A stretch of 64,000 nt of DNA from assembly GCA_964016885.1 (NCBI GenBank), contig OZ024763.1, positions 5,890,001 through 5,954,000 on the forward strand, written 5' to 3'. Shown here piece by piece: positions 8,389-39,700 of this stretch. Position 1 is the stretch's first letter; each line of letters opens with the position of its first letter. A program made the translations under genes and the position numbers. The DNA comes from Eledone cirrhosa. Lineage: Eukaryota. Below the pieces are notes generated by a model. It worked only from the letters and a program-made list of their open reading frames with translations. It had not been told where the DNA came from and made no database searches.

Positions 8389-8452
<64 letters not shown>

Positions 8453-8960: not shown

Positions 8961-9185
8961 CTGTTACAGACAAAATGAACATTTTTTAATACTTTGAATA
9001 TATAAAATTAAAAGTTTTACATTTAATCTGTGTTTCTTTTTCTCTCTCTATGAAGGATGTTTATCTATTTATATATATATATATGCGATGAAATACCAAT
9101 GATGGTTGGAAAATCACTGACGAAGGACTATTTTTATCATATGTAACCCATGTGCAACCACACAGTATTCTTCTTTCTTCTCATG

Positions 9186-9228
<43 letters not shown>

Positions 9229-9315
9229 GGAAAGTTATATTTAAAATTGTTGGGTTACAACTAGTAAATATTTATAACTGATATAAAAGCACTCAACAAG
9301 TATTTGGAGTATATT

Positions 9316-9707
9316 TACAATATTAAATAAATGGAAACTATATTTATAAAACCATATTTATTTCATTATATATATTTCGGGGATATCATATTAACAATAT
9401 GCTATGCCTTCCTCAGACAAAATACAATATAAACAGTTTTATAGATAAATAGATTCGACATACCGTAATAACACCGACTTGCATTTGGAGAGGTTAAAAC
9501 AGGCAGTGTTTTAACACTGCCTGTTTTAACCTCTCCAAATGCAAGTCGGTGTTATTACGGTATGTCGAATCTATTTATCTATAAAACTGTTTATATTGTA
9601 TTTTGTCTGAGGAAGGCATAGCATATTGTTAATATGATATCCCCGAAATATATATAATGAAATAAATATGGTTTTATAAATATAGTTTCCATTTATTTAA
9701 TATTGTA
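9316..9707. repeat. Perfect palindrome, 195-bp arms, 2-nt spacer
   Basis: Symmetric about 9511/9512 (ggcagtgtt|tt|aacactgcc). End coordinates are symmetric (9316+9707 = 9511+9512). Confidence 0.92.
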
Positions 9708-10358
9708 TATATATATATATATACTGGGATTTCTTGGCACTTCTTTACCCAGCGTCATCCTCCACACACATCACATGTCCATACCATCTTAGTCTTCTCT
9801 CCTGCACACTACAGCCTATCCCTCTTATATACTGTATATAGAACATAACCGGTTTCGATGTATCAGTGAAATCCATCTTATCAAATGTTTAGTATTACAA
9901 TTAAAAAGAATTAAAAATTAAAGATTTAAAATTAAGTGTTGAGGCAGGTTTGTTCATCTTTCTTGTTGAGAAGACTGGATCTAAAATGGAATCTTGTATA
10001 TATATATATAGAGAGAGAGAGGGGTAGTTATAGTAGTAGTAGTGGTGGTGGTTGTGTTTTTTCACAGAACAAAATTATTTTTAAGGGGGGAAATTTTCTG
10101 TAAATATGTGTGCATCTCAATTGTGTTAATGGACTGGTCAAGAGTTCAGATGGAGGTGCCGAGGAGGCGAAATGTAAGCTAGAGATAAATTCTATGTATA
10201 TATCTATGACAAATTATATATATATATATTCACTTTGCGCGAATAACGGACTATAACGCGTGTGGTTTTTAATTTTTTTAAATTAGACTTGAATTACACG
10301 AATTTGCTTTATGCACTGTGTTCACAAACACATCTTCGCGTAAAAAGCAAACGCACTG

Positions 10359-10391
<33 letters not shown>

Positions 10392-10443
10392 TAATTTCAG
10401 TAACAGAAGATTCAAAGCATTATCAATTAATACAACTATTATA

Positions 10444-10740
10444 TCATCATCATCATCATTTCACGTCCGCTTTTCCCTGCTTACAAGGGTGGGACGCGTC
10501 CTATTCAGTACAGCATCTCTCTACTTGTCACGGTCCTTCGACATCTCCACTGTGAGGTTCAGCAATCTGAGGTCTGCTCTCACCACCTCCGCCCATGTTT
10601 TTCGTGGTCTACCTCTACCACGTCTTCCTTCAACTGGCATTTCCTGGCACTTCTTCACCCATTGGTCATCCTCCATGCGCATCACATGTCCATACCATCG
10701 CAGTCTCCTCTCTCGCACACTACAATCTTTCCCTCTCAAC
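10444..10740 (-). mobile_element. RTE-clade LINE 3' end fragment with (ATG)n tail
   Basis: Encodes RERRLRWYGHVMRMEDDQWVKK...GRRGRGRPRKTW. A near-identical fragment lies at 21675-21966 (+). Confidence 0.85.
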
Positions 10741-11116
10741 ACATCCATATACATATTTATGTATATATATATAAATGTGTGTATTTATATCTATCTATAT
10801 ACTACTAAAACTCTGTGGTTGCTTGCCTGTCTGTCTGTAATGTAATACAGCCAAAAGGGCGCATAATGGGAAAATACTTTGAAAGGAAGTTGACCCTGAA
10901 ATGGGGATAGAAATGGAATAAAACAAGTTTTGAGTAATTTGGAGCACATGTTCCCAAGATATGGGGTTTTTCTGGGTACCTTCATAAATAGAGAGAAAGA
11001 GATAGTGGTTGTGAGAGAGGGGAGAGGAGAAGGAGAATGGAAGATAGTGGTGGTGTTGTGTATATATGTGTATGTATGTGTGTGTTGGTGACCAGTGTAT
11101 ATAGATCACTGACACT

Positions 11117-11156
<40 letters not shown>

Positions 11157-11333
11157 CATACATACATGCATATATATATATATGTATACACAGATACATA
11201 TATATATATATACACACACACGTATATATACGGACCTTCCAGTTTCATTTCACATTATATACATGTCTGTATATTTTGATTATTTAAAAATTATTTTTAA
11301 GTGAACATGACCTAACGGGTCACCAGTGGTCTA

Positions 11334-11381
<48 letters not shown>

Positions 11382-11383
<2 letters not shown>

Positions 11384-11715
11384 AGGCACATGGCTTAGTG
11401 GTTAGAGCATTGGCCTTGCAATCGAAAGGCTGTGAATTCAATTCTCAGACCGGGTGATGTGTTGTTTCCTTGAGCAAGACACTTTATTTCACATTGCTCC
11501 AGTTTACTCAGCTGTAGAAATGAGATGATAGGGACTGGGGTCCTTATCATTCCACTGCAAAGTGGTCGTGGAGGCGCCACGGCAAAAAAGCACCCAGCAC
11601 TCACTGTAAATGAGGTTGGTGTTAGGAAGGGCATCCAGCTGTAGAAATCAGGCCAGAATCAGTTCCCGTCCCACCCTTGCAAGCAGGGAAAAAGTGGACG
11701 TAAAATGAAATGAAA
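11382..11715 (+). mobile_element. tRNA-derived CORE-like SINE with RTE-derived 3' tail
   Basis: A-box tggcttagtgg, B-box-like gaattcaattc, CORE-like tccttgagcaagacactt. Tail cccacccttgcaagcagggaaaa..ggacgtaaaatga is shared with the RTE 3' end. Inverted copy at 60598-60930. Confidence 0.8.
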
Positions 11716-11728
11716 TATATATATATAT

Positions 11729-13520
11729 AGGAGACAATCATGGGCAAAAAGCAGGCTTGGAAAGACTGGTGGGATGGGGGAAGTAGAGAAGACTATCAGG
11801 TGGCCAGGAGAGAAGCTAGGCAACAAGTGTACTTTGCAAGAAGTGAAGCAGAGGATAGAAAGTTCAAGCATGTTCTACAACATAAGGACCAAAAATGAGA
11901 GGTGTTCAGGATTGCAAGACAATGTGTCAAGGAAAACTGTGATATTGTTGGGGAGAAGTGTGCCCGTAATGATGATGGTGTACTTGCCCTCACTGATACT
12001 GATAAGAAGGTAGCTTGGAAGTGTCACTAAATGAGGAGAATAAATGGAAAAAAGATAGTCTGCCCCTAATCGATCCAAAAGAGGGACCAACTGTATAAGT
12101 TAATGGTAGTATAATAAGTAAGGCAAACAAAGATATGAAGATAGGCAAGGCAGCTGGGCCTTTGGAGATAGTTGCTGAGATGTTGAAAGCATCTGGAATG
12201 GTGGGACATACTATGGTCACCCAGATAGTAAACCAAGTAATACAGAATGGGACCATACCAAATGACTGGCATAGCAACATCATTGTTAACTGCTACAAGG
12301 GCAAAGGAGATGCTCTAGATAGAGAAAACTATAGAGGCATTAAGTTAGTTGACCCGGTTATGAAGGTCACAGAAAGAGTTATTGCACAACTAATTAGAGA
12401 CCGAATTGATCTAGATGAAATGCAGTTTGGGTTTGTCCCAGGTAAAAGTACCATGGATGCTCTCTTCAGAAGTATCTAGCTAAAAGTAAACCCCTCTACT
12501 TAGCATTTGTTGACTTGGAGAAAGCCTTTGACAGAGTCCTCCCGCTCCATTATCTGGTGGGCTCTTAGAAAACTAGGAGTGGAAGAATACTTGTGAGAGC
12601 TATACAAACCATGTATGGAGGAACAGTCAGCAAGGTTAGAATTAACAATGAATTTAGCGTAAAAGTTGGTGTTCATCAAGGCTCTGTCATTAGCCCCCTC
12701 CTGTTATTTATTGCCTTATAGGCTATAACAGAAGAGTTTAAGACCGGCTGCCAATGGGAACTTCTATATGCAGATGATCTAACTCTCTCACCTGAATCTA
12801 TGGCAGATTTAGAGAACAAATTCCAAACATGGAATCAAAAGGCCTTAATGTTAACTTGTCTAAGATTAAAGTTCTAGTATGTAGAAAGGAAATGGCCATG
12901 CTCGGTGTATAGGAAAAGAGTAGGTAGAAATTCCAAATGCAAACTATGGGTACATAAAAGATGTAGTGGGATCACAGGTAAACTATCTAAGAACGTAGAC
13001 TTTATATGTGGCCGATGCTCAGGTGCAGTAAGTAGCAAGTGCCCACAAGATACTAGCTCCTTCAACTGCCCAGATGGTTCTATAGAAATAGTAGACACTT
13101 TCCGTTACCTGGGTGACAAAATCTGCAGTGGAGGAGGGTGCTCTGAAAGTACAGTAGCCAGAGTTAGAACGGGATGGATAAAGTTCAGAGAGCTTATACC
13201 ACTGTTGGCCACTAAAGGTTTCTCTCTAAAAATGAAAGGCAGATTGTATGATGCTTGTATACGAACAGCAATGTTACATGGCAGTGAGACAAGTGCATTG
13301 TGTGCAGAGGACCTGTGAAGATTGGAAAGGAACAATGCATACATGCTCTGTTGGATGTGTAATAGTAAAAAAACTAAGTGAGAAATTAGGAATAAGAGGG
13401 ATCAGATGCAATTTACTTGAGAGGATATTACGTTGGTATGGTCATGTGATGCTATGGAGTAGGTAGACCCAGAAAAACCTGGGACGACATGATAAAATCT
13501 GACTTTGCACACTTACACCT
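11729..13520 (+). mobile_element. Degraded 5'-truncated RTE-clade LINE (RT with LYADD, Cys-rich insert, C-terminal RWYGHV)
   Basis: ORF fragments [17 protein letters not shown]...MQFGFVPG, ctatatgcagatgat (LYADD, ~12764) and FRYLGD...LHGSET. Multiple stops and frameshifts. Confidence 0.9.
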
Positions 13521-13783
13521 CTCTAAGACAATGTCACTGGATCAAGACCTTTGGTGCCACGCAGTAATACAGAAGACCCGCTTTCCCTTACATACAAAGT
13601 TAAACCTACAGTCAGTAAGCTCCTCTTAACCAAATATACACCCCAACCCACTACCCGTACTCCATGGCCCCTCCTAGTTCCTGCATATACATTTAGAGAA
13701 ATATCCTCCACCACCAACTGACTTCTGGTGTAGAAAAATTAAAAGGAAGTTTATAATTTTCCTGGCGGCTTCTGTTGTAGAGA

Positions 13784-13901
13784 ATGGACAAGTTTGTGGT
13801 TAAAAAACAGAAGTTGTCTGCTACAAATGAAGAATTCTCCGCCACTAAACAGCAAGATGGTGATGATGGTGATGGTGAAAATACTGGCAAATTTAAAAAA
13901 G
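13784..13901 (+). CDS. ALKBH2: ALKBH2 coding exon 1 (MDKFVVKK..., APIM motif)
   Basis: ATG 13784 gives MDKFVVK, matching the ALKBH2 N-terminal APIM (human MDRFLVK). Donor ag|gtatgt after 13901, phase 1, compatible with exon 2. Confidence 0.85.
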
Positions 13902-14335
13902 GTATGTTGTATTTATTGCCTTTAGTCTTAACATAGTGAAATTATTGTTGTTATATGCTTTGAAGCATAGAGTTACCTCCCTTTATGATCTGAGTTCAAA
14001 TCCCGCCGAGGTTAACTTTGCCTTTCATTAAATTCCGACACTAATTTGCATAATAGACTAAATAAATTTAATAACCCCACTATCCGGGAGCTTCCAACAG
14101 AAATGGTCGCATTCTTTAAGGGTATGTCAATATTTATTTATAAAACTGATCTATATTATATTTTATCTGATGAAAGCGCACCATAATTTGACTTGGTGTC
14201 CTTGAAATATGTATAATGAAATAAATATGGTTTTATAAATATAGTTTCCATTTGTTAATATCGTATATATATATATATATATATTAAAAGGTCTAAATGT
14301 AACCATGTTTGTGAATAAGAAACATTCTATTGCAG

Positions 14336-14511
14336 CTCTTCAATGGAAGAAGATTCGATCTATTAATCTAGACTGTGATTATGTGATGTTATACAGTAAA
14401 ATAGAGGCTGATAGCTTATTGAGACAGTGTGAAGAGACTTTAACATACAACACTGGACGTCTGGCTCAGGTACAAGTGTTTGGTAAATGGTATGATATAC
14501 CGCGTAAACAG
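14336..14511 (+). CDS. ALKBH2: ALKBH2 coding exon 2
   Basis: Acceptor tattgcag|, donor cag|gtaagg. Encodes LQWKKIRSINLDCDY...VQVFGKWYDIPRKQ, typical of ALKBH2. Confidence 0.92.
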
Positions 14512-14739
14512 GTAAGGTTTATATTATATATATATATACATGTGTGTTTATATGTCTGTGTGTCTGTATATTCTGGGCCTCCAAGAGAAATTTTGCAAGG
14601 TGGTACAAGACCCCTTCGGATGTTGCATGGTTGGTGTGGGGCCTTTTTAGCTTTTGGGCCCCAGAATATCTAAGTGTGTTTGTGTGTGTATATGTCTATA
14701 TATGTCTGCAAGTTAGTGTGTATATATATGTGTATATCT

Positions 14740-15352
14740 GTCAGGTCACCAGTTGGTGCTACTGGTAACATGTATCCCAGTACAACCTGTCCCATGGTCG
14801 AGTCGTTGGCGACTAAACTGGCAACCCCACCAAGGTTTCTTGGTGAGGAGGGTGACTTTGGACATCCTGCAGGACTAAAAACAAAACCTGTCAAAGGGCA
14901 AAGGAGCTCTTAAGAGTCAATGGCCATCCAAAATCACCGGGAGAGATGACCCCTTAGCCTTTGTCAAGGCATAATTCTAGGAGAAGGAAAACTCTGATAT
15001 AACACCTGCAACCCTGATGGTATCCAATGATGTTGACTTGTTCTTCTTTTTGGTAAATATCATCTTGGTTAAGAGAGTGGGACTGGCTTTGTGCAGTGCC
15101 TTCGCTCACTATAAAAGCTTCACGGCACAGGCATTGCTTTATATCTGGAGATCTCTCTGCACTTGTCGTCACATGGTACCATGGGCCCTGCACTATGTGT
15201 CAATAATTGTCACAGGTGTGGAGTGTTTGTACCAGAGTTTTCAAGTCGCTGGCTGGACTAAAAAGTCACACTCGTTCAGCGCATCGGTAGGGGTTCTCCT
15301 ACATGGATATAAAGTAGTGGCCGTACTCGAAAACGAGTTGGCAGCCACCATA
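14740..15352 (+). mobile_element. Non-autonomous LINE-derived element (5'-like segment fused to 3' segment encoding a C2H2-like zinc-finger remnant)
   Basis: The 3' part matches 29540-29827 and 31279-31640. The 5' part (actaaactggcaaccccacc...) is repeated at 15590-15770. A related 3' end is at 16400-16645. Confidence 0.6.
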
Positions 15353-15379
15353 TCTGTCTATAGATGTCTGTAAGTTCGT

Positions 15380-15565
15380 ATGTATCGACAGTCGATAGAC
15401 TTTCGTCAAATCGGACCGAGGAAACCATGTTTCCATTGGTGTTTCCAATTGCTAATACTCTCTACAAGTGGCAACTCCGGGTAGAAGGACATGAGGGGTT
15501 GCCCGGTCCAGGAATCAAACTCACAATCTCAATTCTCTAGCCACTCAGCCACGCGCATTCACTTT
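15380..15565 (-). mobile_element. tRNA-derived SINE (same family as 49726-49945)
   Basis: Reverse complement of ...cctcggtccgatttgacgaaagtc plus a tRNA-like head. Confidence 0.65.
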
Positions 15566-15811
15566 TTGCGTGTATATATGTCTTAAGTACTACTGGTAAC
15601 ATGGAACCCAGTACAACTTGTCGCACATTCGGGTTGTCATCGACTAAACTGGCAACCCCACCAAGTTTACTTTACTTGGTGAGGAGGGTGATTTGGGACA
15701 CCCTGCAGGACAAAAGACAGAACCTGACAAATGGCGGAAGAACTCATAAGAGTCAACAGTCATCCAAAAATGTGTAAATATGTATATACATGTATGCATG
15801 TGTATATATGA

Positions 15812-15850
<39 letters not shown>

Positions 15851-15890
15851 CATGTATATATGAATATATATATATATACATGTGTATATA

Positions 15891-15946
<56 letters not shown>

Positions 15947-15958
15947 CATGTGTATATA

Positions 15959-16009
<51 letters not shown>

Positions 16010-16089
16010 GAATATATATATATATACATGTATGCATGTGTATATATGAATATATATATATATACATGTATGCATGTGTATATATGAAA

Positions 16090-16134
<45 letters not shown>

Positions 16135-16159
16135 CATGTGTATATATGAATATATATAT

Positions 16160-16190
<31 letters not shown>

Positions 16191-16210
16191 CATGTATGCA
16201 TGTGTATATA

Positions 16211-16270
<60 letters not shown>

Positions 16271-16681
16271 CATGTATGCATCTGTATATATATATACACA
16301 TATATATATATGTATGCATGTGTATGTATATGTGTAGGGACATAGAAATAATCAGGCTGGATGCCTGATCGCGCGGTTAAACCACTGTGAGTGAAGGCCC
16401 CTAGCCTTTGTCAGGGCATTCTTCTAGGAGAAGGCAACTCAGGAAACTGGGATAACTCTGATGATGTTGATCTTTCCTTCTTTTCAGGTTATAGCTACTC
16501 TCGCTCGGAGAGTGGGATTGACTCAGTCTTTCCTCACTTTCAAAAAAATCTTCACGCACAGGCATTGCATAACAGCATTAATTGATAATTATTAATGTTA
16601 TATCGTGCAATGGCCATACTCGATAACGAGGGGGCAGCCATCATGTATGTGTACATATATGTCTATGTATATTTATGTTTG

Positions 16682-16717
<36 letters not shown>

Positions 16718-16722
<5 letters not shown>

Positions 16723-16918
16723 GAACAAGTATGACCCCGACGGCAGAGCTCAAGCTGTTTCAACGGCTAATTCTGGACTCAGAGTCAAGAATTAGTCGTC
16801 GAAACGGCTTGAGCTCTGCCGTCGGGGTCATACTTGTTCCTATTACCCACTCTACAACCCTAAGTATTGAGTACTTTGGTGCGTTATGGTCCATCTGGTT
16901 CCTTACCACATTTCCTGC
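16718..16918 (+). repeat. Dispersed ~200-bp element with long terminal hairpin (copy 1)
   Basis: ~55-bp inverted arms (ataggaacaagtatgaccccgacggcagagctcaag.../...cttgagctctgccgtcggggtcatacttgttcctat) plus a constant tail. Copies at 21992-22152 and 56195-56392 (-). Confidence 0.8.
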
Positions 16919-17110
16919 ATTCTATATCTATATATATAAGTCTGTATGTGTGTGTATATGAATAAAAGCACACAGTACACTCTGTAAAGTGGTAGTGTTG
17001 GCACCACAACACCTACACCACACTTATGTATATGATATATATGTGTGTGTGAAGGTGTTAAATGCTTTAAACAATAAATTAATTAATATTTGTATTTCCT
17101 TGTTAACCAG

Positions 17111-17253
17111 GTTGCCTATGGAGATGAAGGTTTGTGTTATACATTCTCTGGAAACACTGTTCCAGCTCGGCCTTGGACTCCACTTTTATTGGAGATCAAA
17201 GATAGAATTACACAGGTGACAGGACATTCTTTTAACTTTGTCCTCGTCAACAG
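17111..17253 (+). CDS. ALKBH2: ALKBH2 coding exon 3
   Basis: Acceptor ttaaccag|, donor ag|gtaagt. Encodes VAYGDEGLCYTFSGNTVPARPWTPLLLEIKDRITQVTGHSFNFVLVN(R). This frame is not in the ORF track. Confidence 0.93.
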
Positions 17254-17566
17254 GTAAGTATCATTGTAACTTAGTCCTTTTGTTACCCTTTTTCTAATGA
17301 AATATACCCTCTTAATTTCAATTAAGAATTTTGAGGGAGTTTCTAAAATTATTATTTCATTACCAAGATAGTAACTTATATAAAATTATGTTGGAGGAGT
17401 TTAATTTGAATAACAGCTCTGCGTTTCAATTAATTAATGAAGAATGTTGAGGGATTTACTAAAATTATTTAATTATTTTGGTTTCTAACTCAATTGTTAA
17501 TGTACCCACCTCCGCTGTTCCCTAAATACTTCCATTATCTAAGTGACTCCCAACTCTATTCCATAG

Positions 17567-17888
17567 ATACCGAGATGGTACCGATCACATGGGAGAACAT
17601 AAAGATGACGAGAAGGACCTCAGAAGACAAAGTCCCATAGCGTCGCTGTCTTTGGGTCAAACTCGAGATTTCGTCTTCCGTCATGAATGTCACCGTGGTA
17701 ACCAAAGAAAGAAGGGCTTAGCCAAACCTGAGATTGACCCAGTCAAGATAGAACTACAACATGGCAGTCTACTACTAATGAACTATCCTACCAATATCTA
17801 TTGGTACCATTCTCTGCCACAACGTAAGAGATTGGCTAATGTGAGGATCAATATGACATTTAGAGATATGGTTGTTAAATCGCAATAA
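17567..17888 (+). CDS. ALKBH2: ALKBH2 coding exon 4 (catalytic 2OG-Fe(II) motifs, stop)
   Basis: Acceptor ccatag|. Encodes YRDGTDHMGEHKDDE (HxD)...YWYHSLP (distal His)...RINMTFR, then TAA. The four exons sum to 759 nt = 252 aa with consistent phases. Confidence 0.95.
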
Positions 17889-18144
17889 CTAAAGGTCTAG
17901 TGCTCCCACTGACTACTCTAACAGACATACCATCAACACTACTACTCACCTCTCAAACAGACCATCAACACTACCACTGTATAGTGCTACCACCCACAAA
18001 CATCAACACAACAAATAATGTGCATAAATATATATATATATATACATGGATATAGGCATACATATATTCATACTTATATATATTTGTGTCTATATATATA
18101 GATATATACACACATAATTATAGGCATACCTATATTTATGTATC

Positions 18145-18440
18145 TTCATCATCATCATCGTTTAACGTCCATCTTCCACGCTTGCATGGGTTTGGACGGG
18201 AGTTTTGCCACTTGAAGCAAGATTGGTTGTCTTGCTCGTATAGGACTGTCTGGCGGGTTTTTCTACGGCTGGATGCCCTTCCTAACACCAACCACGTTTA
18301 CAGTGTGGACTGGGAGGTTTTTACCGTGTTACCTACACGGCCACATTACAGCGTGGACTGTGTGTTTTTTTTTCGTGACACCTACACGACCTCATTTGTT
18401 TCGGACTGGATGTTGTGGTACCGACATAACTTTACATGAG
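18145..18440 (-). mobile_element. SINE/RTE-tail fragment with (ATG)n end
   Basis: Contains ggatgcccttcctaacac...tttacagtg as in the 11382 SINE tail. Similar copies at 53200-53515, 54872-55115 and 61150-61345. Confidence 0.6.
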
Positions 18441-19019
18441 GGAGATGAGGTTATGTTAGCCATCCGCGGCCGAAATAAAGAGGAGGAGTCTTTGCATACC
18501 GAAATAAAGAGGAGTCCCTGCATTCCTATATATATTTGTGTCTTAATGACATCATTTCCAATTTTTTCAAAAATGTAAACATTCTCTGTAACTGATGGCT
18601 GGTGATTGCTTTGGTGAGATTATAACGAAGATTCATTATTAAATAACTGATTTTGAAAAGTCCCAGGAAGGGGATGAAATCTTCGTAAATCAGCATTTAG
18701 TGTATTAATTGTATTTGGTGTCTATTTTAATGACTAATTTGCCTCTAGTGTAATTGTTATTTTTAGCATGATAGGATTTTGAATACATGTCTTTTTGGAA
18801 AATTCTTTAAAAGGGGTATGATAGCCTTTTGTATTGCTTTTAATAATAAATTATTCTATTTTGAGCTGTGTTTAACTTCTCCACCTATCTTTATAACTTT
18901 TTTATATTGTTTTTATAAAAAAAAACGATATTTATTTCTTTTATATAATCATAATCCACCTGGTTGTGGTGGGGCTGATAACATTGTATCCTGGGAAAGA
19001 TGGTTGCAGCTTTCCTTTA

Positions 19020-19340
19020 TGATGCCATTTATGCCATTTTAGAGTCATTTTAGCCATTTTAGTGTAATTTTAATAATTTAGGATGCCGTTTTAGCCATTT
19101 TAGAGTCATTTTAGTCATATATGTTGCCGTTTTAGCCATTTTAGAGTCATTTTAGTCATATATGATGCCGTTTGAGTTATTTTAGAGTCATTTTCGTAAT
19201 TTATGATACCGTTTTAGCATTTTTAGAGTCATTTTATTCATTTCTGATGCCATTTTAGAGTCATTGTAGTCATTTATGATGCCGTTTTAGCCATTTTAGA
19301 GTCAATTTAGCCATTTTAGAGTCATTTTATATTTTAGAGG
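19020..19340. repeat. Degenerate short-period tandem repeat (gccattttagagtcatttta)
   Basis: Visible 10-22-nt periodicity. Confidence 0.8.
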
Positions 19341-19414
19341 AGTAGACTGTATTTACAGTGAACTTTGATGTAAAGATATGGCACTTTGTATGAAAAATTC
19401 AATTGTAGCACTAT

Positions 19415-20642
19415 ATAATAATAATAATAATGAAATATTGTGTACAGTGCTCAGGTGCACTACAACTCATCAAAAAGTGTATGTATAGTACATAGGGTAA
19501 TGTACAAACATCAGGAAAATGAACAGTGCATGAGTCATGATACACACATGTGTGCATGTGTATGGAAGGGGTACATCAGGTGTAGTTTTGGCGTATTTCG
19601 GGAAGCATGAGTGTCTTAAAGGATGCAGTGTCTCGGCAGCTAACAACTGACGTAGGCAGTTTGTTCCATGCTTCAGCAACTCTGAGCGTGAAAAAATGTT
19701 TACGAAAGTCATGGGAGCTGTGCTGTTTTCTGATTTTGTAGGCATGTCCACATGTGTTAGACACATGGAGATCAAAAAGGTGCTCAGGGTTGCAATTGGC
19801 GAGATGGTTCATAACTTTGTGGGTATTCACCAAGTCCATTGCCAGACATCGGAGCTTCAATGAATCCATGCCCAGGGAAGCAAGGCGTTCAGAGTATGGT
19901 AGGTGTCTGATGGAGGGTATGCGCTTGGTTGCACGTCTCTGAACAGTTTCCAGGAGGTCAATGTTCTGAGCAAGATAGGGGTTCCAGACTGATGATGCGA
20001 ATTCCAAGTGTGGTCGTACCATAGCTGTATACAGTTTTAAATAGATGGCTGGAGAGCGGCTAACAAAGGTCTTGCTGAGTGATGCCAAGACACCCCTCGG
20101 CCTTCTTGACAATCTTAGAGACATGCTTTGTCCAATGCAAATCGCTGCTGACAGTAATGCCCAGGTCACGTTCACAAGAGGACTTCTTGATATCAGTGTT
20201 GTGGAGGGAGTATGTGGACGCTGGATTTTTCCTCCCAAAATGCATGATGGTACACATGTCCACAGCCAGCTTCAGTTGCCAGTCTGTGATCCATTGCTGC
20301 ATTGTGTCCAGGTCTGATTGTAGGAAAAAGTTGTAGATTTCAGGATCAGTCCTTTTGATTTCAAGGTACAGCTTGATGTCATCTGCATATTTCAGTACCG
20401 TGGCATTCTGTAAGTTGGCATCTATGTCATTAATATATGCCACAAACAAAAGGGGACCAAGAACAGATCCCTGTGGTACACCAGATGACATCTCATATGG
20501 TGAAGAATGCTGTCCAAGAACCGTGACTACTTCTTTTCGGCTGAGAATGAAGGATTTCAACCAGTCGAAAAGATCATCCCTCACACCCATTGCAGAGAGT
20601 TTTGCCATAAGTCTTTTGTGTGGCACAGAATTAAAAGCCTTA
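19415..20642 (-). mobile_element. 5'-truncated CR1/L2-group LINE, RT C-terminal half, frameshifted, (TTA)n tail
   Basis: SGVPQGSVLGPLLF...KYADD...ERDLG in one frame and LYTAMVRPHLEF..VWNPY...LETVQRRATK...WNKLP in another. The minus-strand 3' end terminates in tcattattattat. Confidence 0.9.
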
Positions 20643-21339
20643 AGGAGTAATCAACTTCCTATAGATACCTTTAATACATTATGATAGAGTAGACTGTATT
20701 TAAATTGAAAATTAGATATAAATATATAACCTTTTATATAAGGGACTCAATTGAGGCAACATATAATGTATGTTAGAACAATGAATTTAGTTATGATAAT
20801 CAGCTAGTTACCTCTCCTAGTTACCTTCCGGGTAATAAACCACTGTAGATTCTCGCAGCAGAAGGAACCTATTCTATAAATGTGGATTAAATAACACTGA
20901 GCCTCAATACTCTACAATCATTTACTACATCAAACATTCAATATGGAATCATCGTAACTTATGTGATGGATGTAAAAACTATATCTTCCTTTTTCTGAAT
21001 GTGAAAATAGTGGTGGATACGAAAACTATAACTCTCTTTTTCTGCACACATACTTTTTTGATCTATACAAAAAATACCCTACCACTACAACCACTATAAT
21101 ACTCTTGCTTACCCGCTTAAAGTGCTTGCATTACATGTAACTCCTTGCCACACAATAATCGTATATAAATGAGACACACTTGCATCCTCCATGTGTAACT
21201 AACGCATACACTACCTACTAGATCTGACTATCAAACTATCCTCTTGCATTATCTGCCGAATGTATTTTAATTTTGATTTTGAATTTGAATTGTTCTACAA
21301 AGATAGTATAGTATAATATATGTCACTCCACTGTACATC

Positions 21340-21966: not shown

Positions 21967-21991
21967 ATGATATATATATATACATACATAC

Positions 21992-22152
21992 AGAGGAGAA
22001 AGTATGACCCCGACGGCAGAGCTCAAGCCGTTTCGACGGTTATTTCTGCCGTCGAGGTCATACTTTCTCCTATTACCCACTCTATTACCCTAAGTATTGA
22101 GTACTCTGGTGCGTTATGGTCCATCTGGTTCCTTACCACAACTCCTTCGTTA
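21992..22152 (+). repeat. Hairpin element copy 2 (partly deleted arm)
   Basis: Same arm and tail sequence as 16718-16918. Confidence 0.75.
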
Positions 22153-22167
22153 TATATATATACATAT

Positions 22168-25100
22168 ATATGAATGACGCATGGCAAATTTAATTTACGA
22201 TACATTAGTGCAGTACTGCCAATCCCGTTGTTGTGGCATCGAATAAACACTAAACTGTTAAGAAGAAAGTTTGAAAATGTCTTAATAAATTAAAAAGCAC
22301 ATTCGTGTGTGTGTCTGTGTGTTATGTGTAACTATACTAGATATAAACACTAATTTCCCTCTTTAAACTATCTCACATACACACGTTTTCACGCATTCCT
22401 ATGAAGAGGTATTGTAGTTATGAAGTAACTACATACTGTATGATCAAATATATTCGAAGTACTGTCAATCACGTTGTGGTTTCCATTAAACTTAACAAAA
22501 AAGTCTGAAAATGTCTTAATATAATCAAAGGCATACTTGTGTGCGTAATGCATAACTATACTAGATATAAACACGGATCTCCCTTTCTCACACAAACACA
22601 CCCTTTGTATAGGAATGGCGCAATGACAGGAGTTGTATTTATGAAGCATCTGTAACTACATATTGTATGTTCAAATATTCGAAGTTGAAATCAACGTTAG
22701 TTCAATGAGATATGAACTTGTGTAGGTAACATGGAACCCATATGTAACCGGTCGACTTGCTCACAAGGACGACCAAATAAAACACATAAATGTGTGTGTC
22801 TCTGTGTGTTATATATAACTATACTAGATATAGACGTCAACAGGAAGACTGTAGATGGCCAATTGTAAGTTCGAATCAACTATAAACCGATGAGGAGTTT
22901 TGAAAAACTTTAAATAAAACACATAAATGTGTGTGTCTGTGTGTTATATATAACTATACTAGATATAGACGTCAACAGGAAGACTGTACATGGCCAATTG
23001 AAAGTTCGAATCAACTATAAACCGATGAGGAGTTTTGAAAAACTTTAAATAAAACACATAAATGTGTGTGTGTCTGTGTGTTATGTATATAAGATATGGG
23101 AAGCCCCCTACGTTGTCGGTCGACTTGTTCGAAATAGTAGCCAAAGACTGCTATTTCTAGCAGGTTTACTGCTGTCCTGTGGACGCACAAGAAAAACCGG
23201 AAGTGGCAGCCATTAAAAAACTTTGGCTTAAAATCAGGCAAAAGTTTTTAAACAATAGAAAATTTAATGTAAACAAACCAGGGTGTTTTTGCCAAGAAAG
23301 ATAACTCTTGTCTTACTTAATCGCAAAAATCGAGACAAAAATTTTGTGTGTGTGTCTGTGTGTTATGTATACAAGATATAGACGCCATTTTGAAGCCCGT
23401 ACGTGGTCGGTCGACTTACTCGAAATAGTAGTCAAAGAGAGGAGATTTTTTTTCACCCGATACAAAAAGTAGGTTTATAAATATTAATTTTCACTATATT
23501 TTTAAGGCGGTCTCGTTGGCCGAGTGGTACGGTGCGTTGAGTCTGCTGAGATACTGGTTGGGGGTTCGATCCCGGCCAACGTCTACACATAGGGGGTCTT
23601 ATTAAACTTTTTCAGTTTTTATTTTATCTCTTAGTATAAAAAGTGAAAAAGTTTAATAAGACCCCTTATGTGTAGACGTTGGCCGGAATCGAAACCCCGA
23701 CCAGTATCTCAGCAGACTCAACGCACCGTACCACTCGGCCAACGAGACCGCCTTAAAAATATAGTGAAAATTAATATTTATAAACCTACTTTTTGTATTG
23801 GGTGAAAAAAAATCTCCTCTCTTTGACTACTATTTCGAGTAAGTCGACCGACCACGTAGGGGCTTCAAAATGGCGTTTATATCTTGTATACATAACACAC
23901 AGACACACACACATTTATGTGTTTTATTTAAAGTTTTTCAAAACTCCTCATCGGTTTATAGTTGATTCGAACCTACAATTCGCCATCTACAGTCTTCCTG
24001 TTGACGTCTATATCTAGTATAGTTATATATAACACACAGACACACACACATTTATGTGATTTGTTTTAAGTTTTTCAAAATTCCTCATTGGTTTATAGTT
24101 GATTCGAACCTACAATTGGCCATCTACAGTCTTCCTGTTGACGTCTATATCTAGTATAGTTATATATAACACACAGACACACACACATTTATGTGTTTTA
24201 TTTTAAGTTTTTCAAAACTCCTCATTGGTTTATAGTTGATTCGAACCTACAATTGGCCATCTACAGTCTTCCTGTTGACGTCTATATCTAGTATAGTTAT
24301 ATATAACACACAGACACACACACATTTATGTGTTTTATTTAAAGTTTTTCAAAACTCCTCATTGGTTTATAGTTGATTCGAACTTACAATTGGCCATCTA
24401 CAGTCTTCCTGTTGACGTCTATATCTAGTATAGTTATATATAACACACAGACACACACATTTATGTGTTTTATTTAAAGTTTTTCAAAACTCCTCATCCG
24501 TTTATAGTTGATTCGAACTTACAATTGGCCATCTACAGTCTTCCTGTTGACGTCTATATCTAGTATAGTTATATATAACACACAGAGACACACACATTTA
24601 TGTGTTTTATTTGGTCGTCCTTGTGAGCAAGTCGACCGGTTACATATGGGTTCCATGTTACCTACACAAGTTCATATCTCATTGAACTAACGTTGATTTC
24701 AACTTCGAATATTTGAACATACAATATGTAGTTACAGATGCTTCATAAATACAACTCCTGTCATTGTGCCATTCCTATACAAAGGGTGTGTTTGTGTGAG
24801 AAAGGGAGATCCGTGTTTATATCTAGTATAGTTATGCATTACGCACACAAGTATGCCTTTGATTATATTAAGACATTTTCAGACTTTTTTGTTAAGTTTA
24901 ATGGAAACCACAACGTGATTGACAGTACTTCGAATATATTTGATCATACAGTATGTAGTTACAGATGCTTCATAACTACAATACCTATACATAGGAATGC
25001 GTGAAAACGTGTGTATGTGAGATAGTTTAAAGAAAGAAATTAGTGTTTATATCTAGTATAGTTACACATAACACACAGACACACGAATGTGCTTTTTAAT

Positions 25101-25213
25101 ATATTAAAACATTTTCAAACTTTCTTCTTAACGGTTTAGTGTTTATTCGAAGCCACAACAACAGGATTGGCAGTACTGCACATTTGTATTAAATTTGCCA
25201 TCCCTCATTCATA
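22168..25213. mobile_element. ~3-kb foldback element: long inverted arms with ~137-bp internal tandem repeats and a central palindrome
   Basis: ORFs 22389-22649(-)/24738-25004(+) and 22697-22879(-)/24508-24690(+) are mirror images. The 135-137-bp unit occurs 2x in the left arm and 5x in the right. The central palindrome spans 23347-23912. Confidence 0.85.
23505..23612 (+). ncRNA. tRNA-like Pol III unit/SINE head (A-box, B-box, T5 terminator); mirror copy 23644-23752 (-)
   Basis: A-box TGGCCGAGTGG, B-box GGTTCGATCCC, self-complementary cgttggccg/cggccaacg, TTTTT at 23608-23612. No canonical anticodon arm recognised. Confidence 0.5.
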
Positions 25214-25699
25214 TTATATATGATAGTTTGTGTGTGAGACACGTTGGCTGAGAACCTCTGACAGGAACTAATAGATTGATTCTTTTTAGCTTCCCGTCCT
25301 CACGTAAAATTTATAAATCGGTGGCTAGTTGAGAGATAGAGTCCTATCGGTTGCCAGTTAATCGCTTTACCATGTCGGTTGTCACAAACAGTTATGACTG
25401 GCGCGGGTCGGTGTTTGGATTATGTCGATCGATTGGTTATTGATTAGGCGATACCCGCTGATGAAGCAGCATAAGCCGATTGTGCATTGTTGCATAATAT
25501 ATGCAGACAGATGGTGCAGTGCACCTTAGTGCTGCAGAAACTCGAGTCCGGGAACCTTGTAGGCACCCGATTAACGTGTGTTGAGTTGAGGCAAATAACT
25601 AAGTGTATACTCTGGTAATGTATCTTACATTGACATTGAGTGCCCTGAGATACAACTGGTACTGGCATTGATAAATATGCTGGGTCCGTCAACCCTTAT

Positions 25700-27153
<1,454 letters not shown>

Positions 27154-28717: not shown

Positions 28718-29539
<822 letters not shown>

Positions 29540-29827
29540 ATCATCTTGGTTAAGAGAGTGGGACTGGCTTTGTGCAGTGCCTTTGCTCACTATAAAAGCT
29601 TCACGGCACAGGCATTGCTTTATATCTGGAGATCTCTGCACTTGTCGTCACATGGTACCATGGGCCCAGCACTATGTGTCAATAATTGTCACAAGTGTAG
29701 TGTTTGTACCAGAGTTTTCAAGTCGCTGGCTGGACTAAAAAGTCACACTCGTTCAGCGCATCGGTAGGGGTTCTCCTACATGGATATAAAGTAGTGGCCG
29801 TACTCGAAAACGAGTTGGCAGCCACCA
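29540..29827 (+). mobile_element. 3' segment of the 14740-15352 element family
   Basis: Near-identical to 15060-15350. Encodes the remnant [22 protein letters not shown]. Confidence 0.8.
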
Positions 29828-31278
<1,451 letters not shown>

Positions 31279-31280
<2 letters not shown>

Positions 31281-31640
31281 TGGCTGCCAACTCGTTTTCG
31301 AGTACGGCCACTACTTTATATCCATGTAGGAGAACCCCTACTGATGCGCTGAACGAGTGTGACTTTTTAGTCCAGCCAGCGACTTGAAAGCTCTGGTACA
31401 AACACTACACTTGTGACAATTATTGACACATAGTGCTGGGCCCATGGTACCATGTGACGACAAATGCAGAGAGATCTCCAGATATAAAGCAATGCCTGTG
31501 CCGTGAAGCTTTTATAGTGAGCAAAGGCACTGCACAAAGCCAGTCCCACTCTCTTAACCAAGATGATATTTACCAAAAAGAAGAACAAGTCAACATCATT
31601 GGATACCATCAGGGTTGCAGGTGTTATATCAGAGTTTTCC
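31279..31640 (-). mobile_element. Inverted copy of the same element (tail-to-tail with 29540-29827)
   Basis: Reverse complement of 14985-15350. Confidence 0.85.
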
Positions 31641-31672
31641 TATATATATATATATATATACATACATATATG

Positions 31673-31781
<109 letters not shown>

Positions 31782-31853
31782 GTATATATATATATATGTA
31801 AGTATATATGTATATGTATGTATATATATGTATATGTATGTATATGTATGTAT

Positions 31854-31884
<31 letters not shown>

Positions 31885-31930
31885 TGTATATATATGTATA
31901 TATATATATATGTATGTATATATATATATG

Positions 31931-31989
<59 letters not shown>

Positions 31990-33735: not shown

Positions 33736-36700
33736 ATCTCAATTAATAATCTGTACAATTGTGAAAATAATCAAGAAAGCAAGTTAGTAAAGTGAAAGGT
33801 ATGATTTTACATAGTAAGTTGAATGAGTTGTGGCCCTTAGATGAAAGACAACAAAACGAAGAGTCTAGTGAATGCTAGAAATGGCAGCCACTGAATATTA
33901 TAAATAATGATAGTTTTGGTAGTTAAACAACCCTCAAATATATGCCATAGTCAACAGTTTACCCTACAACAGCTTACAAAACTGATGAAAACCTTCTTCA
34001 GCGGTTAATAATACTAGAAATGGCGACTAAATATCCCTCAAATCACAGAGTAGTGACACTGGAAGTATTTAGAACAAATTCAATGATATATATAATATAC
34101 GAGGGTAGGCTGACCAACATTCACTCATGGAATGACCAAATGAGGTTTATTTTTCGACATGCACGATTTCACAGCACTAGCATCACTCCTTCATAGGGTG
34201 ACCAAGATACTCTCATGGAATGACCAAATGAGGTTTATTTTTCAACATGCAAGATTTCACACCCTAGCATCACTCCTTCATAGTGAGCCTATGAACTTTT
34301 AAGCCTATCTTCGATTATGTAAACAATGTATTTATTTAATAAACAAATAATTACTAAGAAATTCGAAATAATTTTTGCACCCATTTTTGCGATTAAGTAA
34401 AGACGGAGTTATCGTTCTTGAGATTTCGGCTCAGAGAAATTTATGGAACTGATGTCGCTAAATCGCCAAATCATTTACCTGCCCCGTTGCATCATGGGAA
34501 GGTAATGGCTGCCTTTTACTTTTCAAAAACCATGGCAGTCTTTTTAATATCTTTCTCGCCAAAATGTTTTAATTATTTACTTATATGAAACAAGGAACAA
34601 GATACTGCGAAAGAAACTAAAGATTCTGCCATCTTTTAAAAAATAAAAGGCAGCCATTACCCTCCCATGAGGCAACGGGGCAGGTAAATGATTTGGCGAT
34701 TTAGCGACATCAGTTCCTTAAATTTCTCCGAGCCGAAATCTCAAGAACGATAACTCTGTCTTTACTTAATCGCAAAAATGGGTGCAAAAATTATTTCGAA
34801 TTTCTTTAACTTTTGACACAATTGTTGCATGAATTAAAAACTGAATTTAAAATATTTTTTGTACATTTTTTAACTGTAGCCATAGTAATTATTTGTATAT
34901 TAAATAAATACATTGTTTACATAATCGAAGGTAGGCTTAAAAGTTCATAGGCTCACTATGAAGGAGTGATGCTAGGGTGTGAAATCTTGTATGTTGAAAA
35001 ATAAACCTCATTTGGTCATTCCATGAGAGTATCTTGGTCACACTATGAAGGAGTGATGCTAGAGCTGTGAAATCTTGCATGTTGAAAAATAAACCTCATT
35101 TGGTCATTCCATGAGCGTATCTTGGTCAGCCTCTGAAGGAGTGATGCTAGAGCTGTGAAATCTTGCATGTTGAAAAATAAACCTCATTTGGTCATTCCAT
35201 GAGCGTATCTTGGTCAGCCTCTGAAGGAGTGATGCTAGAGCTGTGAAATCTTGCATGTTGAAAAATAAACCTCATTTGGTCATTCCATGAGAGTATCTTG
35301 GTCAGCCTATGAAGGAGTGATGCTAGAGCTGTGGAATCTTGCATGTTGAAAAATAAACCTCATTTGGTCATTCCATGAGAGTATCTTGGTCACCCTATGA
35401 AGGAGTGATGCTAGAGCTGTGAAATCTTGCATGTTGAAAAATAAACCTCATTTGGTCATTCCATGAGAGTATCTTGGTCACCCTATGAAGGAGTGATGCT
35501 AGAGCTGTGGAATCTTGCATGTTGAAAAATAAACCTCATTTGGTCATTCCATGAGAGTATCCTGGTCCGCCTATTTTTCAACATGCAAGATTTCACAGCC
35601 CTAGCATCACTCCCTCATCCGCTGACCAAGATACTCTCATGGAATGACCAAATGAGGTTTATTTTTCAACATGCAAGATTTCACAGCTCTAGCATCTCTC
35701 CTTCATAGGCTGACCAAGATACTCTCATGGAATGACTAACATGAGGTTTATTTTTCAACATGCAAGATTTCACAGCTCTAGCATCACTCCTTGATAGGCT
35801 GACCAAGATACTCTCATGAAATGACCAAATGAGGTTTATTTTTCAACATGCAAGATTTCACAGCTCTAGCATCACTCCTTCATATGCTGACCAAGATACG
35901 CTCATGGAATGACCAAATGAGGTTTATTTTTCAACATGCAAGATTTCACAGCTCTAGCATCTCTCCTTCATAGGCTGACCAAGATACTCTCATGGAATGA
36001 CCAAATGAGGTTTATTTTTCAACATGCAAGATTGCACAGCCCTAGCATCACTCCTTCATAGGCTAACCAAGATACTCTCATGGAATGACCAAATGAGGTT
36101 TATTTTTCAACATGCAAGATTGCGCAGCTCTAGCATCACTCCTTCATAAGCTGACCAAGATACTCTCATGGAATGACCAAATGAGGTTTATTTTTCAACA
36201 TGCAAGATTGCACAGCCCTAGCATCACTCCTTCATAGGCTGGCCAAGATACTCTCATGGAATGACCAAATGAGGTTTATTTTTCAACATGCAAGATTGCA
36301 CAGCCCTAGCATCACTCCTTCATAGGCTGGCCAAGATACTCTCATGGAATGACCAAATGAGGTTTATTTTTCAACATGCAAGATTGCACAGCCCTAGCAT
36401 CACTCCTTCATAAGCTGACCAAGATACTCTCATGGAATGACCAAATGAGGTTTATTTTTCAACATGCAAGATTGCACAGTCCTAGCATCACTCCTTCATA
36501 AGCTGACCAAGATACTCTCATGGAATTACCAAATGTGGTTTATTTTTCCACATGCAAGATTGCACAGCCCTAGCATCACTCCTTCATAGTAAGCCTATGA
36601 ACTTTTAAGCCTACCTTCGTATATGTAAACAATGTATTTAATATACAAATAATTACTAAGAAATTCGAAATAATTTTTGCACCCATTTTTGCGATTAAGT

Positions 36701-39700
36701 AAAGACGGAGTTATCGTTCTTGAGATTTCGGCTCGGAGAAATTTAAGGAACTGATGTCGCTAAATCGCCAAATCATTTACCTGCCCCGTTGCATCATGGG
36801 AAGGTAATGGCTGCCTTTTATTTTTCAAAAACCATGGCAGTCTTTTTAATATCTTTCTCGCCAAAATATTTTTAATTATTTACTTATATGAAACAAGGAA
36901 CAAGATACTGCGAAAGAAACTAAAGAATCTGCCATCTTTTAAAAAATAAAAGGCAGCCATTACCTTCCCATGAGGCAACGGGGCAGGTAAATGATTTGGC
37001 GATTTAGCGACATCAGTTCCTTAAATTTCTCCGAGCCGAAATCTCAAGAACGATAACTCTGTCTTTACTTAATCGCAAAAATGGGTGCAAAAATTATTTC
37101 GAATTTCTTTAACTATTGACACAATTGTTGCATGAATTAAAAACTGAATTTAAAGTATTTTTTGTACATTTTTTAACTGTAGCAATAGTAATTATTTGTA
37201 TATTAAATAAATACATTGTTTACATAATCGAAGGTAGGCTTAAAAGTTCATAGGCTCACTATGAAGGAGTGATGCTAGGGTGTGAAATCTTGTATTTTGA
37301 AAAATAAACCTCATTTGGTCTTTCCATGAGAGTATCTTGGTCACACTATGAAGGAGTGATGCTAGAGCTGTGAAATCTTGCATGTTGAAAAATAAACCTC
37401 ATTTGGTCATTCCATGAGAGTATCTTGGTCACCCTCTGAAGGAGTGATGCTAGAGCTGTGAAATCTTGCATGTTGAAAAATAAACCTCATTTGGTCATTC
37501 CATGAGAGTATCTTGGTCAGCCTATGAAGGAGTGATGCTAGAGCTGTGGAATCTTGCATGTTGAAAAATAAACCTCATTTGGTCATTCCATGAGAGTATC
37601 TTGGTCACCCTATGAAGGAGTGATGCTAGAGCTGTGAAATCTTGCATGTTGAAAAATAAACCTCATTTGGTCATTCCATGAGAGTATCCTGGTCCGCCTA
37701 TTTTTCAACATGCAAGATTTCACAGCTCTAGCATCACTCCTTCATAGGGTGACCAAGATACTCTCATGGAATGACCAAATGAGGTTTATTTTTCAACATG
37801 CAAGATTTCACAGCTCTGGCATCACTCCTTCATAGGCTGACCAAGATACTCTCATGGAATGACCAAATAAGGTTTATTTTTCAACATGCACGATTTCATA
37901 GCTCTAGCATCTCTCCTTCATGGGCTGACCAAGATACTCTCATGGAATGACTAACATGAGGTTTATTTTTCAACATGCAAGATTTCACAGCTCTAGCATC
38001 ACTCCTTGATAGGCTGACCAAGATACTCTCATGGAATGACCAAATGAGGTTTATTTTTCAACATGCAAGATTTCACAGCTCTAGCATCACTCCTTCATAT
38101 GCTGACCAAGATACTCTCATGGAATGACCAAATGAGGTTTATTTTTCAACATGCAAGATTGCACAGCCCTAGCATCACTCCTTCATAGGCTGACCAAGAT
38201 ACTCTCATGGAATGACCAAATGAGGTTTATTTTTCAACATGCAAGATTTCACAGCTCTAGCATCACTCCTTCATAGGCTGACCAAGATACGCTCATGGAA
38301 TGACCAAATGAGGTTTATTTTTCAACATGCAAGATTTCACAGCTCTAGCATCTCTCCTTCATAGGCTGACCAAGATACTCTCATGGAATGACCAAATGAG
38401 GTTTATTTTTCAACATGCAAGATTGCACAGCCCTAGCATCACTCCTTCATAGGCTAACCAAGATACTCTCATGGAATGACCAAATGAGGTTTATTTTTCA
38501 ACATGCAAGATTGCACAGCTCTAGCATCACTCCTTCATAAGCTGACCAAGATACTCTCATGGAATGACCAAATGAGGTTTATTTTTCAACATGCAAGATT
38601 GCACAGCCCTAGCATCACTCCTTCATAGGCTGGCCAAGATACTCTCATGGAATGACCAAATGAGGTTATTTTTTCAACATGCAAGATTTCACAGTTCTAG
38701 TATCACTCCTTCATAGGCTGGCCAAGATACACTCATGGAATGACCAAATGAGGTTTATTTCTCAACATGCAAGATTGCACAGACCTAGCATCACTCCTTC
38801 ATAAGCTGACCAAGATACTCTCATGGAATGACCAAATGAGGTTTATTTTTCAACATGCAAGATTGCACAGCCCTAGCATCACTCCTTCATAGGCTGGCCA
38901 AGATACTCTCATGGAATGACCAAATGAGGTTTATTTTTCAACATGCAAGATTTCACAGCCCTAGCATCACTCCCTCATAGGCTGACCAAGATACTCTCAT
39001 GGAATGACCAAATGAGGTTTATTTTTCAACATGCAAGATTTCACAGCTCTGGCATCACTCCTTCATAGGCTGACCAAGATACTCTCATGGAATGACCAAA
39101 TAAGGTTTATTTTTCAACATGCACGATTTCATAGCTCTAGCATCTCTCCTTCATGGGCTGACCAAGATACTCTCATGGAATGACTAACATGAGGTTTATT
39201 TTTCAACATGCAAGATTTCACAGCTCTAGCATCACTCCTTGATAGGCTGACCAAGATACTCTCATGGAATGACCAAATGAGGTTTATTTTTCAACATGCA
39301 AGATTTCACAGCTCTAGCATCACTCCTTCATAGGCTGACCAAGATACTCTCATGGAATGACCAAATGAGGTTTATTTTTCAACATGCAAGATTGCACAGC
39401 CCTAGCATCACTCCTTCATAGGCTGACCAAGATACTCTCATGGAATGACCAAATGATGTTTATTTTTCAACATGCAAGATTTCACAGCTCTAGCATCTCT
39501 CCTTCATAGGCTGACCAAGATACTCTCATGGAATGACCAAATGAGGTTTATTTTTCAACATGCAAGATTGCACAGCCCTAGCATCACTCCTTCATACGCT
39601 AACCAAGATACTCTCATGGAATGACCAAATGAGGTTTATTTTTCAACATGCAAGATTGCACAGCTCTAGCATCACTCCTTCATAAGCTGACCAAGATACT

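Follow-up and report, generated by a model that had tools for sequence, protein, structure and literature searches.

Foldback elements possess long, modular inverted arms. In Tetris of Drosophila virilis, as in FB, TU and Galileo cited with it, the arms contain a flanking domain, variable tandem units and an inner domain, and Tetris-type elements are non-coding and present in few complete copies (PMC4079207). In a second kind of system, Helenus/TRIMp3 together with Cassandra and Ajax, a non-functional tRNA-like unit with A and B boxes is embedded in a longer mobile sequence (PMC10886601). Helenus is known from bivalve molluscs and shows tRNA-like motifs (TRGCY/YGG and GGTTC), conserved flanks, a T-rich stretch behind the unit and two unit copies per element; it further possesses two direct long terminal repeats (LTRs), a primer binding site, a polypurine tract and, in animals, 4-bp target duplications (PMC10886601). 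Mollusc tRNA-derived short interspersed nuclear elements (SINEs) also begin with an A/B-box head (PMC11481361, PMC4758252). They are recognized by a body, a 3' microsatellite or poly(A) tail and a length of 200-700 nt, and occur in palindromic arrangements in bivalves (PMC11481361); tRNA-derived loci are very numerous in the giant squid (PMC6962438). Penelope-like elements form inverted pseudo-LTRs, inverted repeats with a palindromic junction (PMC3846280). Here we describe a palindrome at positions 22168-25213 of a 64,000-nucleotide stretch of contig OZ024763.1 (the window, in which all positions are counted) that resembles each of these systems in part. We read it, with moderate confidence, as a low-copy, non-autonomous, foldback-like mobile element whose patchwork arm ends in a passenger tRNA-derived cassette of RNA polymerase III (Pol III) type. 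We found no published description of the element; a name for the cassette family may already exist in Repbase, Dfam or the consensus library of Octopus vulgaris.

The element is a palindrome with two unequal arms around a 13-nt loop. The left arm (22168-23622, plus strand, 1455 bp) and the right arm (23636-25213, minus strand, 1578 bp) are separated by an unpaired apex of 13 nt (23623-23635). In self-BLAST comparisons, the outer arms (22160-23089 versus 25221-24298) are 95.8% identical over 936 columns and the central palindrome (23345-23913, 569 bp) is 95.6% identical. The palindrome thus exists in the sequence as an initial annotation, made from the letters of the window, had described it; of the central palindrome of about 565 bp with a loop of about 14 nt proposed there, the palindrome stands at 569 bp and the loop is corrected to 13 nt. 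The central palindrome folds at -507 kcal/mol (z -56), a value equalled by 0 of 100 shuffles, and the duplex of arm against arm contains 1272 identical columns with a longest perfect run of 267. The several substitutions reported between the arms amount to 28, and the arms are further distinguished by several indels, the number of 137-bp units and one whole module. No ATG-started reading frame in the element is longer than 88 aa, in agreement with the view that it encodes no protein.

Each arm is composed of modules, and a GT-rich motif recurs in every one of them. The outer domain (22212-22700, plus) consists of M1 and M2, two diverged modules of about 245 bp that are 68-71% alike by self-comparison and each contain the motif. 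It is followed by tandem arrays, for which Tandem Repeats Finder (TRF) gives 2.3 copies of a 135-137-bp unit on the left (22775-23089, plus) and 5.3 copies of a 137-bp unit on the right (23887-24612, minus), bearing out the unequal repeats of about 137 bp (2 versus 5) seen initially. Units of the right array differ mutually by 1-6 substitutions. Module M5 (23090-23344, plus, 255 bp) is present in the left arm only and combines a copy of the beginning of M6 (81% alike) with a piece of a commoner repeat; it also contains a 52-column match to the inner palindrome of an element at 34284-34960. Neither M5 nor the two outer modules featured in the initial annotation. The inner domain M6 (23345-23622 in the left arm, plus) reaches the apex.

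The arms appear to have diverged and partly re-converged since they were formed. Arm identity is 231/263 in 22168-22424, 349/350 in 22425-22774 and 270/278 across M6. Mismatches are unevenly distributed along the arms (14/245, 1/350, 5/315 and 8/278; chi-square p = 2e-4), so an older mirror with patchy conversion between the arms fits better than a single recent copy. Transitions account for 13 of the 28 substitutions, 6 of them at CpG. We also considered an ADAR-type strand bias between the arms and rejected it (A-to-G 8 versus 5, p = 0.58).

The modular plan argues for kinship with foldback elements. The succession of flanking domain, tandem units and inner domain is that of Tetris (PMC4079207), and the foldback-like anatomy recognized at the outset is upheld by the modular inverted arms with their variable tandem units. 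In contrast to Tetris-type elements (PMC4079207), the middle domain measures 13 nt, a tRNA-derived cassette of Pol III type forms the inner domain, and the ends are TA runs without an 8-10-bp target duplication. Because this duplication is missing, we do not file the element as a Mutator-type member, even though it works like a foldback. The arm may have been built from repeat fragments joined at the recurring GT-rich motif and then mirrored once, by fold-back DNA synthesis that would have been primed at the cassette's T-rich end and would have left the 13-nt loop. Module slippage could later have altered the arms, giving 2.3 versus 5.3 units and a one-sided M5, as could patchy arm-to-arm conversion, and a transposase provided in trans would have carried copies of the whole unit to a small number of sites, of which the TA run here is one. 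The element is probably an ordinary mobile-element relic and not a dedicated RNA-making locus.

The inner domain contains a tRNA-derived cassette that the palindrome presents in two copies. Scanning the 64 kb with the A-box/B-box consensus yielded exactly two matches, one per arm, compared to a mean of 0.01 in shuffled sequence (n = 200), which sustains the idea of a tRNA-derived head; tRNA numbering places the +1 position at 23510 and sets the extent of the unit. The left copy (23510-23612, plus) possesses an A box at 23517-23527, a consensus-like B box at 23563-23573 and a run of five T (T5) at 23608-23612, so that about 103 nt separate +1 from the end of T5. An AT-rich block (23464-23503, plus), common to a repeat family that continues into related A-box heads, carries TATAAA (23476-23481) 34 nt upstream, and the TATA-like, A, B and T5 elements of this copy are plausibly spaced. 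In the mirror copy (23646-23748, minus), the A box lies at 23731-23741, the B box at 23685-23695 and T5 at 23646-23650; the first base of its B box is changed from G to T at 23694. The claim that an A box, a B box and TTTTT face the loop in each arm consequently holds for the pattern, with the right B box mutated. Likewise, the Pol III unit of about 110 nt proposed for both arms becomes one of about 103 nt and, given the mirror symmetry, the two convergent units are a single cassette and its image. Two of the eight differences between the inner domains fall within the 22 box columns (p = 0.13 for an excess), and the boxes are therefore not protected.

The cassette is not a tRNA, and it lacks a cloverleaf in which acceptor, T and anticodon stems all pair. 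ARAGORN found 0 genes and the acceptor strands are unpaired. In the window, no Rfam family reached its gathering score, and a search of 133 bases gave no tRNA even at E <= 10, so the tRNA check suggested initially turned out negative. The Rfam microRNA matches were also discarded, being far below gathering score and reflecting a generic hairpin. The cassette folds into two hairpins whose strength is marginal (z -1.0 to -2.2). A perfect 9-bp complement (23514-23522 with 23573-23581) pairs the start of the A box with the end of the T-arm, making a panhandle fold possible that would be favoured in the right-arm version. The flanks of the cassette are weakly alike, 194 and 140 of 2000 shuffles scoring as high, and a decayed target duplication around its head is not favoured. 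In metagenome contigs, a 24-nt head pattern gave 0 exact matches. An 18-nt head pattern matched 3 viral contigs by chance, with no likeness beyond the pattern and no tRNA, and AT-block patterns matched one prokaryotic-looking and one viral contig, again by chance and over 24-25 bases only.

The predicted RNA output of the element is small. The mutated B box of the right copy makes it doubtful that both arms yield RNA; the left copy would give at most a Pol III RNA of about 103 nt and the right copy less or none. Terminator runs are located at or before the loop on both strands (T5, T5 and T4 on plus, two T5 on minus), and the RNAs expected from the two units would be non-overlapping and near-identical in sense. 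Since both units meet T5 ahead of the loop, Pol III alone would yield no double-stranded RNA (dsRNA), contrary to the read-through hairpin that had been envisaged, and long dsRNA from the element would require Pol II read-through from outside.

Among known systems, Helenus/TRIMp3 is the nearest conceptual match to the embedded cassette. Its A and B boxes fit the Helenus motifs TRGCY/YGG and GGTTC and lie within a longer unit with common flanks (PMC10886601). Unlike Helenus, the element has no direct LTRs, primer binding site or polypurine tract. Its two copies face each other in inverted orientation across the 13 nt of the loop, and no PBS-like start follows the cassette: there is no TGG within 20 nt behind its candidate CA end. 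By analogy, the element could be described as a Helenus counterpart with inverted LTR-like copies. No cephalopod Helenus is named in the portions of the Helenus text covered here, and five test strings were absent from its supplement by a string search in which FASTA line breaks could hide a match (PMC10886601). The cassette differs from tRNA-derived SINEs (PMC11481361, PMC4758252) in having neither a body nor a tail derived from a long interspersed nuclear element; its T5 stands at +99 to +103 and is followed by the apex. In addition, the copies have their upstream flank in common, a feature that copying via RNA from +1 would not create.

An independent contig contains the apex, and contig depths roughly suggest a few copies of the palindrome. 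We compared 22060-23660 (left arm and apex) at 85% likeness with contigs of four of seven listed read runs (X1, X2, X4 and X5; X3, X6 and X7 left out), all from one study under one organism label. The terminus (22142-22179) was masked, and as the compared region comprises left arm and apex, an empty-site joint could not appear. A contig of X2 shows 0 differences from 23572-23660 and, via an opposite-strand joint, folds back on itself; the apex thus exists outside this assembly. In contigs of M2 from X1 and X2, two positions carry insertions of about 10 bp where both arms of the window have none, meaning that these contigs are not this assembly's sequence and that the window arms are more alike mutually than to the contigs. 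Another sample (X4) yielded a contig in which the 137-bp unit joins M6 in the manner of the right arm (joint 22952/23396). Contig depth is 67.8 at the apex, 60-66 in the outer arm and 104-119 in the inner arm, compared to a reference median of 10.4 (quartiles 7.5-15.4) of 25 hand-picked single-contig depths from X1 and X2, which omits X4 rows, repeated rows and seven others (1717, 2080, 82, 100, two two-contig rows and the apex). The copy number from this ratio is about 6, falling to about 3 should 10.4 be the heterozygous level. Depth in X1 is about 83-fold that in X4, and the contig letters of X4 amount to 6% of those of X1; these values cap the single-copy depth of X1 near 33, corresponding to at least 2 copies. 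Depth is not itself a copy number and filters drop records, so the figure of about 2-6, a few copies instead of one or hundreds, is a rough one; it agrees with the earlier expectation of more than one copy. In the restriction-site-associated DNA (RAD) run X5, 22 of 30 bins show depth, values are near zero over 22384-22761 and 23410-23660, and nothing bears on the element ends.

Steps in summed contig depth mark pieces of commoner repeats within the arm, among them a high-copy cassette family. Summed depth reaches 5,000-14,000 over 23140-23355 and 18,000-21,000 over 23464-23517. Behind 23503/23504, 13+3 contigs of X1 and 21+3 of X2 have loose ends that continue into related heads. Compared by eye and without gaps, the two consensus loose ends agree with the head from 23510 at 14/16 and 17/20 positions, while the 5-6 bases ahead of +1 differ between them and this head. 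In family members, the position of the A box relative to the AT block is kept exactly, while the 6-nt spacer varies. A few contigs contain the upstream block and the stretch from 23603 without this head, and the downstream T-run is apparently also common to the family. Very roughly, the AT block with its head forms a repeat family of about 500-2000 copies. Since the upstream block is common to family heads, the cassette seems to have spread together with this flank, within a larger unit and unlike a plain SINE; the proposed capture of a bare SINE head gives way to the acquisition of a flanked cassette. The family could be Helenus-like.

Both ends of the element lie in TA runs. The palindrome starts inside the TA run that ends its left neighbour (22150-22171), which is the probable insertion site as well as the usual 3' neighbour of the flanking repeat, and finishes in a short TA run (25211-25221). 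The left-neighbour repeat, found at 21990-22150, 16716-16950 and 56176-56400, is TA-flanked with a palindrome of about 120 bp and a tail of about 75 bp, and ends in a TA run in 3/3 window copies. Its summed contig depth in X1 is 2.4 million, and it is probably present in tens of thousands of copies or more.

Several observations weigh against transposition of the palindrome as a unit. The anticipated target-site duplications did not emerge: an end-position scan detected no informative duplication, all matches of at least 4 bases being derived from the TA runs, and no Mutator-type duplication of 8-10 bp. Symmetric ends give ATAT only, and matches of 8-9 bp arise only if asymmetric ends are placed within the TA runs. 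The copy estimate is indirect, and the extra copies could be segmental duplicates. No autonomous partner was found, no genome-wide search having been made. The window also contains other palindromes of different apparent origins, including a hammerhead-bearing Penelope-type one, so a mirror structure alone is no proof of transposition.

The most serious alternative, though an unlikely one in our assessment, is a local fold-back (inverted) duplication of repeat-rich DNA that was never mobile as a unit and gained its extra copies via segmental duplication. Break repair primed at a short inverted repeat of the T-rich apex would be resolved at the self-complementary TA runs, accounting for TA-run ends without a distinctive duplication and for an arm that is a patchwork of unrelated repeats. 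The several long mirrors of the window are also in keeping with this explanation, as one of them (33736-47275) exceeds the ends of its inner element. A mirror that halts at the TA run closing the left neighbour, however, is insertion-like, modular tandem arms fit foldback elements, and the depth suggests at least two copies of the same apex.

At a lower level of probability, a departure from a foldback-like relic in the other direction has to be weighed. The element could represent an undescribed class of DNA-level element, a foldback counterpart of TRIMp3 that carries a complete Pol III cassette as a selected inner domain; we regard this as improbable. If it were true, the two inward-facing units would make RNAs of about 100 nt or act as paired TFIIIC boundary sites, and the family of about 500-2000 cassette copies would be one that keeps its promoter register while its body diverges.

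A Penelope-type retro-insertion is similarly improbable. In this scenario, a 1.45-kb RNA ending near the T-run primes its own copying by reverse transcriptase (RT) at its 3' end, and the resulting tail-to-tail copy enters a TA run. A sense template primed by its own 3' end is predicted to yield tail-to-tail inverted repeats, and the inverted repeats with palindromic junction formed by these elements (PMC3846280) have parallels in this window. RT and GIY-YIG frames are present at 47244-48940 (E 3e-4 and 1.6e-4, just under the Pfam cut-offs), and a TA-flanked 404-bp palindrome at 9310-9713 contains type I hammerhead folds. The element itself, in contrast to Penelope-like elements (PMC3846280), has no RT or endonuclease frame and no hammerhead: with one core mismatch allowed, 0 were found in 22101-25750 versus 3 elsewhere in the window and 0.05 in shuffles. 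A candidate in the 137-bp unit was rejected for a core mismatch and the lack of stem I. Rfam gave no hammerhead match in the element, and it also missed the hammerhead at 9607. The outer end is unlike the ends of the Penelope-type elements of the window, and independent self-priming would be expected to create differing apices, yet one apex is apparently common to several copies.

Less probable again is a selected regulatory structure in which inward-facing Pol III cassettes make RNAs of about 100 nt, serve as a TFIIIC double insulator or provide a hairpin for ADAR or Dicer. The plausible spacing of promoter and terminator elements in the left cassette and the A-box register kept across the family despite a variable spacer are features that such a function would explain, and an RNA reading through both arms would form a duplex with the 1272 identical columns and 267-column perfect run given above; dsRNA from young repeats is the main target of ADAR (PMC9989829). 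Against this stand the mutated right B box and the unspared box columns, the T runs at or before the loop on both strands, the absence of an A-to-G strand bias between the two arms, and the fact that no mapped intron of the nearest gene contains the element. Fold-back long reads are known to produce near-perfect mirrors as an artefact, and one stretch of the arms is identical at 349 of 350 positions, but an assembly artefact is highly improbable and largely refuted by the apex hairpin in an independent contig, as well as by arms that differ in 28 substitutions, indels, repeat number and a whole module.

Taken alone, the foldback-like element is a low-copy repeat relic, and any mirrored repeat that bears a promoter yields convergent promoters. 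The high-copy cassette family is the more useful part to follow, not the palindrome: a tRNA-derived Pol III unit that apparently spreads with a TATA-like upstream flank departs from the standard SINE plan. If confirmed, it would extend the small-RNA promoters carried by mobile elements such as Cassandra, Helenus and Ajax to cephalopods and perhaps to DNA-level elements, and it would be a source of false positives for tRNA and SINE annotation. It would also supply further TFIIIC sites and hairpin substrates to a lineage of interest for its ADAR editing.

The neighbouring gene indicates that the host is a cephalopod, as had been considered, and probably an octopod. An ALKBH2-like gene (14332-17888, plus) with three mapped exons (14332-14514, 17105-17254 and 17553-17879) lies to the left of the element. 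Of 120 homologues listed for its last exon, the nearest named ones are the ALKBH2 proteins of Octopus vulgaris (81%) and O. bimaculoides (80%), and the remaining 118 are at most 74% alike; the host assignment follows from this one gene. The element begins 4280 bp past the stop of the ALKBH2-like gene, with 10 AATAAA/ATTAAA hexamers in between, and thus outside its mapped introns.

The window contains further palindromes, and comparison revealed no likeness of their ends to those of the element. The palindrome at 9310-9713 is 99% perfect, lies beside a TA run and possesses one outward type I hammerhead per arm (9607 plus, 9416 minus) with an 8-bp stem I and a palindromic stem III; it resembles two Penelope pseudo-LTRs arranged head to head. 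A single related copy (82%) at 14121-14271, just upstream of the first mapped ALKBH2-like exon, has a hammerhead at 14167, and the two hammerhead variants differ in stem II and keep the core. The mirror at 33736-47275 spans 13.5 kb, with outer arms 94% identical, 88-bp arrays in alternating orientation and repeated inner palindromes of about 450 bp. It encloses an element with TA-CGAGGG ends, which we take to be mariner-like, and its right arm runs into the RT and GIY-YIG frames at 47244-48940, a putative broken Penelope-like element. Another mirror (29127-31989, 2.9 kb, 89%) is centred on a long TA-type array and carries in each arm a repeat of about 310-380 bp that is also present at 14985-15365. 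Elsewhere, a stop-free frame of 2053 codons (1925-8086, plus) is probably one very large exon and contains coding repeats of 39, 42 and 123-138 bp with many KRGRKSS units. A homogeneous 70-bp tandem array occupies 57882-60146 with 32.4 copies and 96% matches by TRF.

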